Assembly: GCA_963696385.1 (NCBI GenBank)
Contig: CAVOKF010000008.1
Location: 416,001 to 480,000, forward strand
DNA length: 64,000 nt
Source: an uncultured delta proteobacterium
GTDB lineage: Bacteria > Myxococcota_A > Polyangia > Polyangiales > Polyangiaceae
Direction of reading: 5' to 3'
Under the pieces are notes generated by a model. It did no database searches. It saw nothing but the letters and a program-made list of their open reading frames with translations, and was not told the origin of the DNA. Position numbers and translations under genes: made by a program. Each line of letters opens with the position of its first letter. Position 1 is the first letter of the stretch. Below, piece by piece: positions 34,895-64,000 of this stretch.

Positions 34895-35938
34895 TCACAG
34901 CCCCTTTCGTTTGAGCATCTCGACCAGCGTGGTGCGATTGAGCCCTAGAAGCTGCGCCGCTCGATTCTTGTTTCGACCGGTGCGCTCGAGCGCCTGGGCG
35001 ATCAACCGATTTTCGTAATGCTCCACCGCCGCGCGCAGGTCAATCCCGCCGTCGGGAAGCGGCGCCGCGGAGGTGGCCGGTGGCGCGGCTGCCGCCACGC
35101 CACGAATACGCTCCGGCAAATCGTTCGCCGTGATGCTCGTGCCCTGGGTGAGCAACACGGCACGCTCCACGGCGTTCTCGAGCGACCGTACGTTGCCAGG
35201 CCACGCGTACGAGCGGATCGCCTCGAGGGCGTCGGCTGCCAAGGCGATGCCATCCTTGCGCCCGGCGCGCGCTGCGCTGGTCCGGAGAAAGTGCTGCGCA
35301 AGCACCTCGACGTCGTCGCCTCGATCCCGGAGAGGCGGAAGCGCGATATGAATGACGTTGAGTCGATAGAACAAATCCTCACGAAACCGACGATTGGCTA
35401 CCTCGACTTCGAGGTCCCGATTCGTGGCCGCGACGATGCGCACATCGCACTTGAGCACACGTGTTTCGCCCACGGGTGCGTACTCGCGTTGCTGAAGTAA
35501 GCGAAGCAGTTTGACCTGCACGCTCAAGGGCAGCTCCCCGACTTCATCGAGGAACAACGTGCCGCCCTCGGCCGCGGCGACGACGCCTTGGCGCGCCACG
35601 TGGGCTCCGGTGAACGCTCCCCGCGCATGCCCAAAGAGCTCACTTTCAATCAAGTTTTCGGGGATCGCCCCGCAATTGACGGTCACCAGAGGCTTGCTCG
35701 ATCGCGGGCTCGCATCGTGGAGCGCAGCAACGACCAGCTCTTTGCCGGTGCCGCTCTCGCCCGTCACGAGCACCGTGCAGGACGACGCCGCCACGCGCTC
35801 GATCGTATCGAGCACACGCCGCATCGCGGGATGGTGGCCGATGATCTTTCCACGACTCGTCGGCCGCATCGTCGGTCGAATCACAGCCACGACCGTGGAC
35901 TCGAGTGGAAACACTTCAGCAGTGGACGGCTCACTCAT
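34895..35938 (-). CDS. Sigma54-dependent enhancer-binding protein, FleQ/FlrA-like, without an N-terminal sensor domain
   Basis: [50 protein letters not shown]; at the edge of the flagellar cluster. Confidence 0.88.
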
Positions 35939-36174
35939 GGTTGGCGGTCTCCTTGAGCCGGACCGGCTCGGGAGGGGCGCTAATGCAATGGGTGGACCGT
36001 TCATAAATGCCGTTATTTTGACGCTTCTTGCGCGCGGCTGGGGTCGATTCGACCCTTCCCACGCGGGAAGATCCTGCAGCTTTTCTCGAAAAAAAGGCTG
36101 GAAACGCGTCGAGCTTCGCTTGACCCAGGTGGGACGATGTTGACCCATCCCCCAAAGCAAAATGGGAATACCGA

Positions 36175-36684
36175 TTACTCTGCGCTCGCGCCGGCGGCCG
36201 TTGCCGCGATCGTGTTGCCGTTGGCGTTCGCCGGGGACTGCGCCCCGCGCGGCGCCGTCACGACCGGAGGCTGAATCGGCGTCGCCGCCGAGAATTTGCT
36301 CCAATCCAGCACGACTTGCGTTCCCTTGCGGGCCCGGCGGTCGACCGCGATGGGGGCGACCAGGTTCGCGACCATCCGGGGCTCATCGCGGCTCACGCGG
36401 ACGATGACGAGCAGCGACAGGTCCGCGGGCTTGATGGCGGCCTGTCTCGCACATTCTTCGATATCCGACGCCGTGTAGCCGGGAAGCACCGAGCTGCCCT
36501 CAATCACCGGAAAGGCGAGCGAAGGAGTCGAGAGCGACTGCAACCACGAAATGGCGCTGCCGGAGGCGGGGGCCAAGAGGACGAACTGTCCCTCCTGGGG
36601 AAAGCCGATGATGCCGGTGCTTAGAGTGATTACGCGAGCGTCGTCGATTTCAATTTGTCCAAATCGGGTGCCGGTGATTTGCAT
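36175..36684 (-). CDS. fliW: Flagellar assembly factor FliW
   Basis: [18 protein letters not shown]...[12 protein letters not shown]...G.QVVL. Confidence 0.9.
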
Positions 36685-36920
36685 GACTCTGCCTTCTCTG
36701 TGGGGGCGTTTGGTTCGGACGCGGAACCCTCGATCGAAGTGTCTCCGGCGGCGGTGTTGGCCGCCGCCACCTCGTCGTGCACTTCTCCACGAAGTACGAC
36801 AATTCCGTCCGGAGCTCGAACGGCGAGACGGACACCTCGTTTCGTGACTTCCGCGATCGTAATCTCGACGTCATTCGAGATGACGATCCGCTCACCCACA
36901 CGCCGTTGGATGATGAGCAT
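36630..36920 (-). CDS. csrA: Carbon storage regulator CsrA
   Basis: MLIIQRRVGERIVI...VRLAVRAP..IVVLRGEV; 3' end overlaps the fliW start by 55 nt. Confidence 0.9.
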   Translation of the reverse strand: MLIIQRRVGERIVISNDVEITIAEVTKRGVRLAVRAPDGIVVLRGEVHDEVAAANTAAGDTSIEGSASEPNAPTEKAESCKSPAPDLDKLKSTTLA

Positions 36921-60823: not shown

Positions 60824-62905
60824 GCACCGAGGCCGTCGCGATCTCGACCCCCTCTCGCGGGGCCGACATCATCATTCCGCTCGGGATCATCGGCATCGTC
60901 CTCATGATGGTGTTGCCGATCCCGGCGATGCTTCTCGACATCTTGCTGTCGTTCTCGCAGGCGCTCGCCATCGGGGTGTTCCTGACGGCGCTCTTCATCG
61001 AAGAAGCGCTCGAATTCAGCGCATTTCCGGCGTTCGTTCTCATCGCCACGCTCTTAAGATTGAGCCTGAACGTCGCGACGACGCGCCTGATTCTTCTGCA
61101 CGGAGGCGAAGGAGCGGGCGCCGCCGGATCGGTGGTGGAGGCCTTCGGGCGCTTCGTGGTCGAGGGCAACGTGCTGGTCGGGCTCGTGGTCTTCTTGATC
61201 CTGGCGGTCATCAACTTCGTGGTCGTCACCAAAGGCGCCGGGCGCGTCGCCGAGGTCTCGGCTCGGTTCACCTTGGACGCCATGCCCGGCAAGCAGATGG
61301 CGATCGATGCGGACCTGTCGTCGGGTTCGATCAACAACGACCAGGCGCGCGGCCGACGAAAGAAACTCGAACGGGAGGCGGATTTCTACGGAGCCATGGA
61401 CGGAGCCAGCAAGTTCGTTCACGGCGACGCCGTGGCCGGCCTGCTCATCACCGCCATCAACTTGATCGGCGGGCTCATCCTCGGCGTATCGCGGGGCATG
61501 GATTTGTCGAAAGCCGCCGAAACGTTCTCGGTTCTGAGCGTCGGCGATGCGCTGGCGTCGCAGATTCCGGCGCTGCTCATCTCCGCCGCCTCCGGCATCG
61601 TCGTCACGAGAAGCGCGACCGGCGATCAGCTCGGCCGTGCGTTCGGCACGCAGCTCTTCGGCCGTCGGAAACCCGTCGCGATGACCGCCGGAATTTTGAC
61701 GGTCCTCGCTCTGATGCCCGGGATGCCGACCGTGTCGTGCCTCATGCTCGCGGGTGGGTTTCTAATGCTTTCGCGCAAGATCGGCGCCCCTTCTGCCGTC
61801 GTGGCGAAGGTGGCCCCCCCGCCGGCCGCGAACGACCCGAAGCGCGCCGCGTCGGAAGTCGACGCTTCGCTGGCCCTCGATTTGCTGTCGCTCGAAGTCG
61901 GCTACGAGCTGGTCGGCCTCGTCGACGCGACGCGCGGCGGAACGCTGCTCGATCGGGTCGCCATGTTGCGACAGCAACTCGCCAAGGATCTGGGCATGAT
62001 CATGCCCCCGGTTCACGTGTGCGACAACCTTCAATTGCCGCCCGGCGCCTACCGGGTGCTCATCTCGGGCAATGCCGTGGGGGCCGGCAGCTGCAAGGCC
62101 GGGCGCCTGCTCGCCGTCGATCCGATCGGCCAGGCGCCTCCGATCCAGGGCGAAAAAACCATGGATCCGACGTTCGGCATGCCGGCCCGCTGGATTGCGG
62201 TGCGCGACAAGGAGATGGCGGAGGCGCTCGGATACACGGTGGTCGATCACGCGACCGTCATCGCGACCCATCTGGGCGAACTGCTTCGCGTCAACGCGCA
62301 CAAGCTCCTGGGGCGGCAGGAAGTCCAGCACTTGCTCGACGTCCTGGCCAAGACGGCACCGAAGATCGTCGACGACGTGGTTCCGAACTTGCTCTCTCTC
62401 GGTGACGTGGTCCGCATTCTCCGAAATCTGGTGCGCGAGGGCATCTCGATTCGAGATCTCGCGGACGATCCTCGACTCGCTCGGCGAACTCTCCGCGCAA
62501 ACGAAGGACATCGAACAACTCACGGAGCTGGTGCGCGAGCGGCTGGCCTCGCACATCACCTCACGCGTCAAGGGAGCCGACGGCAACGTCGCCGCCTTGA
62601 CGCTCGATCCGCGGCTCGAAGAGGTGCTCCGCAGGTCGCTGCGCGAGATCGCCACAGGCACCGGCGGCGCCCTCGATCCGGAGCTCCTGCGGACACTCGT
62701 CGCCAACGTCGAGCGGTCCGTCAAAAAGTTCACGGCCATCTCGGCCACACCGCTGGTCGTCACGTCTCCAGACTTGCGGCGCTACGTCCGCGCCGTCTTC
62801 GAACGCAAGATCCCCCAGCTCGCGGTCGTCTCGTTCCGCGAAATCGACCCGACGGCGCCGATCCAGGTCCTCGACCGGCTCGCGCCCAATGCTCTCGCTC
62901 AGTGA
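60820..62905 (+). CDS. flhA: FlhA, with a +1 frameshift at about 62460
   Basis: RLSLNVATTRLIL, RVAEVSARFTLDAMPGKQMAIDADL, FYGAMDGASKFV; corrected junction SIRDLRTIL. Confidence 0.95.
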
Positions 62906-62912
62906 GGAGTCC

Positions 62913-64000
62913 ATGAAGACCCAGGTGTTCCGCGGTCGGACCGCTTTCGATGCACGCCGGGCGGCGACGGACGCTCTCGGCGACAACGCCGTCGTCCTGA
63001 CCACACGCGACGTGCCTCGCCGAGGAATCACGGGACTGTTCGGGGGCAGCGACGTCGAGATTGCGGCCGCCGTAGCGGAGCCGGCGACGGCGCCCCCGAC
63101 TGCCGGGGCGGCCGCGGCGAAGGGCCCGTTCGCCTCGAGTGCGTACGCGCAAGGCGAGAGCGCTCCGGCGCGCGATCCGATCGCCGCGCTTCGCGCGGAG
63201 CTGCGCAGCGAGATCCGGGCCCTCAAAATCGCGCTCGCGCGACCCGGGTCGGGCCCCTCGAACGACGTCGCAACCGAGATCGTCGCCATTCGCGATGCCA
63301 TCGAACAGCTGGCGCCCAAGGCCGCGCGCGGCGACAAGTCGACGGCGGTGGTACGCGCCCATGGGATCGAAGGGGGCGCCGCCATCGCTCTCGCACGCGC
63401 GACGCGGGCGAAGGGCGACGCGGATACCACCCTCGAGGAGCGCTTTCGCAACGCGCTTTCCGAGCTGGTGCAGCTGAAGGCCTGGCCTCTGTCGGGCGAA
63501 GGTCGCGCCGTCATCGCGGTCGTGGGCCCCGCAGGCGTCGGCAAGACGACGACCCTCGCGAAGCTCGCGGCCCGCGCCCGAATGGACAACAAGACCGTGA
63601 CGCTGGTCGCTTGCGACACGTTCCGGGTGGGCGGCGTTGCCCAGATCGAGCGCTACGCCGACCTGCTCGGCGTGCCGTGCGAGACGGCTCGCGACGCCGA
63701 CGAGCTCGCGAGCATCCTGGCGGCGGTGCGAACCCAGTTCGTCTTCGTCGATACGGCCGGAAAGGAGCCGGCGGCAAACGCAACCGAGCGTCTTCTCGCC
63801 ACCGACCGCTTCGCCGCCACCGACGCGTGCCGAGGCTTCGCCCGTCACGTTCTCGTCTGTGTGCCGGCGGCGATCCGCGCGATCGATGCGACGCGCGTGG
63901 CGCGATCGTTTTCGGCGACCAACCCGACCGCCGTGGCGATCACCAAGCTCGACGAGACCGAGGCTCCGTCCGGCGTCGTCCATGCGACCTTCGCGTCGAA
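62913..64000 (+). CDS. flhF: FlhF SRP-family GTPase, runs off the window
   Basis: Manual translation from ATG 62913: GPAGVGKTTTLAKLA, DTFRVG, DTAG, TKLDE. Confidence 0.92.
   Translation, partial: MKTQVFRGRTAFDARRAATDALGDNAVVLTTRDVPRRGITGLFGGSDVEIAAAVAEPATAPPTAGAAAAKGPFASSAYAQGESAPARDPIAALRAELRSEIRALKIALARPGSGPSNDVATEIVAIRDAIEQLAPKAARGDKSTAVVRAHGIEGGAAIALARATRAKGDADTTLEERFRNALSELVQLKAWPLSGEGRAVIAVVGPAGVGKTTTLAKLAARARMDNKTVTLVACDTFRVGGVAQIERYADLLGVPCETARDADELASILAAVRTQFVFVDTAGKEPAANATERLLATDRFAATDACRGFARHVLVCVPAAIRAIDATRVARSFSATNPTAVAITKLDETEAPSGVVHATFAS

Follow-up and report, generated by a model that had tools for sequence, protein, structure and literature searches.

Myxobacteria are a model for movement without flagella, and have been stated to lack these organelles (PMC6060248) or to move without them (PMC10196010). 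Among the described exceptions, Anaeromyxobacter dehalogenans 2CP-C carries a 55.7-kb flagellar cluster (Thomas et al. 2008, PMC2330069), swimming was seen in Anaeromyxobacter strain K (PMC2330069), and Anaeromyxobacter flagellar transcripts were detected in paddy soil (PMC4405575). Flagellar assembly was also listed for Polyangia metagenome-assembled genomes (MAGs) from a spring, one of them in Polyangiales (10.1101/2021.07.06.451402), flagellins were among the top transcripts of Myxococcota and Bdellovibrionota MAGs from a seamount (PMC11937823), and a 2026 preprint counted Myxococcota among the motile phyla (10.64898/2026.06.16.732483). Here, we describe a flagellar gene cluster in a stretch of 64,000 nucleotides (the window, G000:C8:416001-480000) of the Polyangiaceae genome G000, which comprises 6.94 Mb in 8 contigs and is 96.4% complete and 2.8% contaminated. 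Anaeromyxobacter belongs to a different class from this Polyangia host.

The locus resembles that of A. dehalogenans 2CP-C in being a single large cluster with motAB, fliC, and more than 30 flagellar genes in a myxobacterium, and the authors of that study also argued, in 2008, for an ancestral origin followed by loss in most myxobacteria (PMC2330069). It differs in that G000 has fliJ-, flgN-, flgA-, fliK-, and flgJ-like genes and a sterol-making host, its chemotaxis genes lie outside the cluster, its fli and flg operons diverge, it has a shortened FliM, and no flhG was found. The report on the spring lineages is, in its available text, a single sentence on anaerobic lineages as a group, not on Polyangiaceae, with no gene map, prevalence, tree, or expression (10.1101/2021.07.06.451402). 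The non-flagellar type III secretion system (T3SS) of myxobacteria ("Myxo"; Abby and Rocha 2012, PMC3459982) shares a homologous export gate, ATPase, and ring with the locus; it is without FlgBCDEK, FliEG, FlgH, and MotAB, all of which are present in G000. The available portions of PMC11821767, PMC10576062, PMC10196010, PMC6194562, and PMC13445942 contain no passage on Polyangiaceae flagellar genes, part 1/2 of 10.1101/2025.10.08.681201 has nothing bearing on flagella, and no publication devoted to Polyangiaceae flagella was found in literature searched largely without subscription papers.

Flagellar gene set and host

We consider it probable that the locus encodes a flagellum with all its structural parts, likely inherited from early Myxococcota and likely built for swimming in water-filled soil or peat pores, beside predicted gliding and pilus motility. 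Pfam and NCBIfam scans bore out the near-complete set that the initial annotation had described at 34895-64000, including FlhF, FlgM, FliW, and CsrA, and arranged it in two divergent operons, leftward from 45645 and rightward from 45740. The rod, hook, and junction set is complete (FlgB, C, F, G, D, E, K, L, and FliE), and the MS-ring and C-ring (FliF, G, M, and N), MotAB, and the L/P rings are all present. Flagellin, fliD, fliS, fliA, and flgF had been reported as missing from the window, with the suggestion of looking downstream; all five lie 0.1-6 kb past its end, on locus L003 (G000:C8:478001-498000, the DNA past the window end), the filament and cap genes fliC and fliD at 3-5 kb. FlgI and flagellin each have a single locus in the genome, and this is the sole flagellar system found in G000.

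The leftward half consists of the following features.

34895..36304, minus strand: sigma-54 enhancer-binding protein (Pfam; AAA+, GAFTGA, HTH_8; no receiver domain found)
36175..36684, minus strand: fliW (PF02623)
36630..36920, minus strand: csrA (PF02599; TIGR00202 at 54 bits, under the cut-off of 70)
36972..37859, minus strand: flgL, hook junction (TIGR02550 above cut-off)
37859..39253, minus strand: flgK, hook junction (TIGR02492 above cut-off)
39257..39598, minus strand: probable flgN chaperone (place between flgM and flgK; no family match)
39603..39896, minus strand: flgM, anti-sigma-28 (PF04316)
39972..40274, minus strand: short flgJ-like ORF (from its translation, presumably resembling the FlgJ rod-binding domain)
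40271..41404, minus strand: flgI, P-ring (PF02119, 397 bits)
41408..42109, minus strand: flgH, L-ring (PF02107)
42106..42855, minus strand: flgA (weak TIGR03170 match, E 3.5e-5; conserved place)
42852..43634, minus strand: flgG, distal rod (TIGR02488 above cut-off)
43801..44529, minus strand: motB, stator; its sequence retains the conserved membrane Asp (YADF) (PF13677 and OmpA)
44536..45333, minus strand: motA, stator (PF01618, PF20560)
45334..45645, minus strand: flbD (PF06289)

The rightward half runs past the window end into L003.

45740..46141, plus strand: flgB (TIGR01396 above cut-off)
46138..46584, plus strand: flgC (Flg_bb_rod and Flg_bbr_C)
46587..46901, plus strand: fliE (PF02049)
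46894..48615, plus strand: fliF, MS-ring (TIGR00206 above cut-off)
48667..49638, plus strand: fliG, rotor (FliG_N, _M, and _C)
49635..50312, plus strand: fliH (PF02108)
50312..51641, plus strand: fliI, export ATPase, with a spurious extra base at 50766 (Pfam/NCBIfam; intact 442-aa gene in G228)
51638..52076, plus strand: probable fliJ, with a spurious extra base at 51958 (position; no family match for the ORFs scanned)
52073..53503, plus strand: probable fliK, hook-length control, Pro/Ala/Ser-rich (position and composition; no family match)
53514..54236, plus strand: flgD, hook cap, with a spurious extra base at 54174 (Pfam)
54282..55571, plus strand: flgE, hook (Pfam/NCBIfam)
55608..56105, plus strand: fliL (PF03748)
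56102..56968, plus strand: fliM, 288 aa, without the N-terminal LS..EID.LL peptide (TIGR01397, divergent: 56 bits, cut-off 220)
57007..57369, plus strand: fliN (PF01052)
57366..60823, plus strand: fliO, fliP, fliQ, fliR, and flhB, export gate (Pfam/NCBIfam)
60820..62905, plus strand: flhA, with a spurious extra base at 62460 (Pfam; intact 694-aa gene in G228)
62889..64000, plus strand: flhF, cut by the window end, whole at L003:889-2121 (TIGR03499 at 172.7 bits, cut-off 174.15)
L003:2118-2835, directly after flhF: fliA (TIGR02479 above cut-off)
L003:2838-3567: flgF, with a likely spurious extra base at 3220 (intact in G228)
L003:4100-4780: FlgJ-muramidase-like glucosaminidase
L003:4932-5786: fliC
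L003:5929-7284: fliD
L003:7373-7804: fliS
L003:7811-9277: maf-like gene
L003:11341-12516: pseB
L003:15214-16386: pseI

By analogy with known flagellar biology, the sigma-54 activator would start the basal-body operons, FliA/FlgM and FliW/CsrA would time flagellin synthesis, the export gate with FliI would secrete the rod, hook, and filament, MotAB would turn the FliG rotor, and the maf and pse genes would glycosylate flagellin. The sigma-54 enhancer-binding protein at 34895..36304 is likely the flagellar master regulator: an orthologue (73-75% DNA identity) lies about 33 kb from flgI in all three other FlgI-positive congeners tested, and none was found in the one FlgI-negative congener tested. 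A scan for sigma-54 and sigma-28 consensus promoters gave no full match, only isolated -10-like words.

Several further observations concern the DNA past the window end. Tandem flagellin genes are frequent in relatives (G019, G037, G057, G025, G027, and G068), and G000 has one copy (L003:4824-5864). The start of the maf/pse sugar island (L003:7811-16386) is thinly covered by DNA run X6 and its flanks are covered, which suggests strain-variable flagellin glycosylation. A 112-aa ORF after flgF (L003:3564-3905, plus strand), without a Pfam match, presumably resembles the start of an HDOD domain. Intergenic runs of a 6-base repeat (GACCTC-like) occur at L003:3920-4080 and at about 30080-30190 of the window, with copies at many sites in the related genome G228.

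The host, described earlier as a Polyangiales-like, sterol-making myxobacterium, is by its FlgI and RpoB relatives a member of the Polyangiaceae in the phylum Myxococcota. Among 15 loci returned, the closest FlgI (96%) was that of the Polyangiaceae locus L016, which matches the flagellar contig of G228, and the second closest (65%) came from Labilithrix sp.; G228 belongs to the same genus as G000, with 99.6% identical RpoB. Sterol synthesis is represented in the window by an oxidosqualene cyclase with a DCTAE motif at 5190-7139, which scored 723 bits on the oxidosqualene cyclase model (cut-off 851) and 220 on the hopene cyclase model, and by a squalene epoxidase at 8143-9603. Both belong to a sterol-type cluster at 5190-12028 (plus strand) that also encodes an MMPL transporter; beside it, at 12038-16774 (minus strand), lies a gene for a 1578-aa protein with a weak Met-zincin zinc-metalloprotease motif. 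For other forms of motility, one G000 locus encodes full-length GltG-like and GltC-like proteins, both under curated cut-offs, and PilT has five matches above cut-off in G000. The GltG-like protein occurs in 49 of 50 family genomes, with or without flagella.

FliM, flhG, and the motor switch

CheY-P docks on the N-terminal peptide of FliM, the same one that FlhG uses. FlhG binds the FliM N-terminus, and flhG lies consistently directly downstream of flhF (PMC12826062). The G000 FliM, 288 aa long, aligns to the FliM model only from model position 47 onward, and just 22 residues precede the aligned part; in G389, the alignment begins at position 2. The LS..EID.LL peptide is missing from the 270-288-aa FliM of G000, G228, G162, G051, G339, and G390 and is recognisable in FliM of G634, G389, G311, and G489, outside the G000 clade; in a second Polyangiaceae subclade (G187, G154, and G272), the FliM N-terminus is longer, with no clear motif. 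The gap between flhF and fliA is <100 bp in all nine clade loci in which both were seen, against 977 bp in G389, and FlhG-like ORFs were found in 12 of 80 loci scanned, all outside the clade. In G000, flhG is not beside flhF, and FlhG queries from 12 relatives retrieved no orthologue from the genome (best matches, 28-34% identity). Because FlhG binds the FliM N-terminus, a joint loss of the FliM peptide and flhG is coherent. Judged from these sequences, the clade-specific loss of the docking peptide together with flhG would make the G000 flagellum a variant of the ordinary flagellum. This loss is what the present analysis adds; no publication on such a FliM/flhG variant was found within the literature scope given above.

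With a FliM that lacks the peptide and flhG gone, reversal of the motor by the standard switch is improbable, and the motor may be one-directional or braked, perhaps via the CheA-CheX system at 271-280 kb of contig C7. This chemosensory cluster (G000:C7:271055-279529; L241:5055-13529, minus strand) reads cheA-cheW-PAS sensor-cheB-cheR-cheX-cheY; the PAS sensor gene looks split across frames, and no MCP domain scored. Of the relatives examined, 20 of the 40 with flagella and 0 of the 25 without had an orthologue of its CheA; these genomes are kin and not independent, so that no p-value is attached. In several relatives, the orthologue lies within about 60 kb of flgI. Of the three chemosensory clusters in G000, the two others (C5:1121812-1129326 and C4:888566-895763) are unlinked to the flagellar locus. 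Among the myxobacteria examined in one study, PAS-MCPs occurred only in Corallococcus coralloides (PMC6194562).

The shortened FliM and the missing flhG, together with the retention of gliding-like and pilus genes, would also suit a flagellum that is built but used mainly to spread on, attach to, or sense surfaces, comparable to the lateral flagella of Shewanella and Vibrio with their one-directional motors, and not for free swimming. To our knowledge, FliM of these lateral flagella is without the CheY-binding peptide, and FlhF is absent from typical lateral systems. The lateral flagella of Shewanella putrefaciens and Vibrio alginolyticus, described as ignoring chemotaxis (PMC12016497), have one-directional motors outside normal chemotactic switching, as the shortened FliM predicts; they are second systems beside a polar flagellum, whereas the G000 flagellum is the sole system found and keeps FlhF and FliW-CsrA. 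The retained FlhF, the association of the chemosensory CheA with the flagellum, and the reported swimming of Anaeromyxobacter strain K (PMC2330069) argue against surface use, which we regard as unlikely, and we prefer an organelle for swimming.

Distribution and origin in Myxococcota

Genomes were sampled at the levels of family, order, and phylum; the samples overlap and include G000, and two unpublished genomes (G290 and G256) were used in tallies only. At the family level, FlgI was found in 144 of 301 genomes, from 45 of 89 genera; at the order level, in 103 of 251, from 13 of 19 families; and at the phylum level, in 122 of 301, from 97 of 201 genera. Within the G000 genus, 8 of the 13 other members had it, and two well-sampled families had none (0/22 and 0/13). 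In a picked set of family genomes, flagellin accompanied FlgI in 39 of 40 cases and was found in 0 of 25 FlgI-negative genomes, so that FlgI is a fair proxy for flagellum genes; the sole miss was G228, whose contig ends inside fliC. No cultured species name appeared among the best 120 matches of the FlgI homologue search, and the second locus of G456 had no flagellar genes. The surprise that the initial annotation expressed at a swimming system in this lineage was thus overstated: clusters occur in about 40-50% of the sampled family, order, and phylum genomes, and flagellar genes had already been reported for Anaeromyxobacter (PMC2330069) and for Polyangia MAGs (10.1101/2021.07.06.451402). Its view of a true, native flagellum in a sterol-making Polyangiales host stood.

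To compare histories, trees of FlgI+FlgH+FlgG+FlgK and of RpoB were built with FastTree (LG+gamma) for 60 FlgI-positive Myxococcota chosen for long contigs and spread. Left out were G311 (RpoB in a wrong frame), G653, G122, G293, and G022 (no RpoB found in these four), G084 (partial), and G256 (unpublished). The outgroups were Acidobacteriota and Alphaproteobacteria only, and FastTree supports are optimistic. The two trees shared 28 of 57 splits (200 shuffles: mean 0.24, maximum 2), 21 of the 31 RpoB splits supported at 0.95 or higher recurred in the flagellar tree, and patristic distances correlated at 0.87. G000 grouped with its own genus in the flagellar tree (support 1.0), and the 24 FlgI-negative genomes fell in 19 separate places of the RpoB tree. 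These comparisons suggest that the flagellum was likely inherited within Myxococcota, with repeated losses and some exchange among relatives, a direction that the trees do not prove; non-flagellated myxobacteria would then represent repeated losses.

Acquisition sideways from another phylum by the ancestor of the genus or family could be read from the single compact locus, the patchy presence within the genus (8/13), and some tree conflict inside the order, with no close-phylum outgroup in the trees. Against it, FlgI identity to G000 declines with taxonomic distance, from 70-74% within the genus (G228, 96%) through 51-67% within the family to 36-50% outside the order, the trees are congruent across the phylum, and the cluster resembles the rest of the genome. 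In a comparison with G228, in which 27.5 kb is colinear and 93% identical to the G000 cluster, dS was 0.18 in the cluster and 0.20 in background ORFs. The GC content is 0.664, within the 0.650-0.665 of the eight contigs, in line with the GC style noted earlier, and the tetranucleotide distance lies at the 86th percentile among 183 genome windows. Such a sideways origin is therefore quite improbable, and of the two origins first put forward, ancestral or re-acquired, the tree congruence, dS, and typical composition favour the former.

Reading frames and contig integrity

Relative to G228, G000 has one extra base each in fliI (50766), fliJ (51958), flgD (54174), flhA (62460), and flgF (L003:3220). 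With five frames broken over some 26 kb of coding sequence, frameshifts looked denser than in the background (about 13 isolated ones in 195 kb by hand count), as expected of a decaying relic with real frameshifts in these genes. Yet all five are +1 and absent from G228, and the four in the window are missing in every covering public run (4 runs, 2 studies): 50766 in X1, X2, X4, and X12, 51958 in X1, X2, and X4, 54174 in X1 and X4, and 62460 in X2, X4, and X12. The long DNA pieces listed from X1, X2, and X4 are 99.5-100% identical to the window. At the flgF site, a near-identical DNA contig has one gap, and the G228 gene is intact. The rate of isolated one-base gaps between G000 and G228 was similar elsewhere (7 per 27.6 kb in the cluster and 60 per 336 kb outside it), and 7 of 37 insertions stood at GATC (expected, 6.8%), which would fit methylation-linked long-read errors; GANTC was not enriched (1/37). 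The five frameshifts are assembly errors, the one in flgF likely so.

None of the 27 correctly framed G228 genes has an internal stop. In 26 of them, dN/dS was 0.02-0.27 (fliO, 0.54), and the pooled value of 0.14, inflated by one mis-framed gene, compares with 0.18 for 139 background ORFs. Once the assembly errors are removed, the reading frames are intact and under purifying selection. The relic reading was accordingly rejected, and we give it next to no credence; where a missing flagellin and real frameshifts had been named as grounds for doubt, fliC is present and the extra bases are assembly errors.

A chimeric or mis-binned contig, with a cluster that comes from a different organism, was suggested by the metagenome-type assembly, its 2.8% contamination, and the gene at 33894-34850, which is missing from G228 at the junction. 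However, contig C185 of G228, an independent assembly, joins window positions 30405-33989 to 34829-39463 and thus carries flank and cluster side by side, G228 with its nearly identical RpoB has the same cluster at 93%, and 143 other family genomes have FlgI. A chimera is therefore extremely improbable and was rejected; the contiguity with myxobacterial genes described earlier holds across the 34-36 kb junction. The gene at 33894-34850 (plus strand) is a 318-aa Pro/Ala/Asp-rich ORF with no Pfam match, a strain-level insertion beside the cluster.

A non-flagellar T3SS was rejected, as in the initial annotation, by the presence of FlgBCDEK, FliEG, FlgH, and MotAB and by scores for FlhA (703 bits on the FlhA model, 476 on SctV), FliP (273, 187 on SctR), and FliI (448, 395 on SctN).

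Expression and setting

Of 20 public runs listed, 14 contained at least one fifth of the locus words, and their labels were soil, peat, wetland, or plain metagenome; the best-matching run may be the source sample. RNA runs X18-X20 and DNA runs X15-X16, which contained small shares of the locus words, were left out of the contig comparison. RNA contigs covered flhA-fliS in all three RNA runs compared (2 studies), without strand information or a silent control. In run X12, fliC (215 bases with 2 differences), flhA, and the glucosaminidase gene were each matched by near-identical pieces. In run X17, a relative at 93-94% identity was represented by three long contigs, which cover flhA-flgF, fliC, and fliD-fliS. 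Contig depth over fliC was 60-470 in RNA and about 9-11 over the left flank in DNA run X6, a measure that cannot rank genes. The lack of RNA cover over maf was not taken as evidence. These contigs hint at flagellar transcription in nature.

Interpretation

Several points weigh against an inherited, swimming flagellum. No cell has been observed. The RNA evidence consists of contigs with the limits given above, much of it from relatives at 93-95% identity. The FliM motif search is insensitive, having matched only one of seven loci from outside the clade, and in half of the flagellated relatives no CheA orthologue was found among the 15 candidates scored per genome. Many of the FlgI-negative genomes are MAGs, in which an assembly gap could account for the absence. 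The trees have neither Desulfobacterota nor Bdellovibrionota as an outgroup, their deep branches are weak, and counting changes does not distinguish gains from losses. Of the strongly supported RpoB splits, four are contradicted by the flagellar tree; these conflicts lie inside the order and involve G019, G088, and family f14, which nests among Polyangiaceae. Agreement inside the family is lower, at only 8 of 24 shared splits (correlation 0.64). These conflicts and the low within-family agreement make some cluster exchange within the order likely, as far as the trees can tell.

In G019, G088, G351, and G390 (L070, L089, L079, and L078), the flagellar genes sit on another branch than RpoB, which suggests replacement of the cluster within Polyangiales.

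A broader picture, which we put forward tentatively and would not yet defend, is that dispersal in Polyangiaceae includes a swimming stage that has been overlooked. Roughly half of the species in the family would build a glycosylated flagellum whose motor has lost the CheY/FlhG peptide of FliM together with flhG and uses a non-standard brake or turns one way, with gliding and pili kept; the ancestor of Myxococcota would have had flagella, and the non-swimmers in culture would be a biased sample from among many independent losses.

The statement that myxobacteria lack flagella fails for many uncultured members. With hundreds of such instances, the value of this single window is limited. As the sole system found in its genome, with FlhF, without FlhG, and with a shortened FliM, the G000 flagellum is a natural test of motor switching and counting, and close pairs with and without the cluster (e.g., G028/G106, RpoB distance 0.027) make loss directly testable. 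Should a working flagellum be retained in about 40% of Myxococcota species, gliding would have arisen beside swimming and not after its loss. The flagellum also alters the picture of how these predators of soil and peat might spread and reach their prey.

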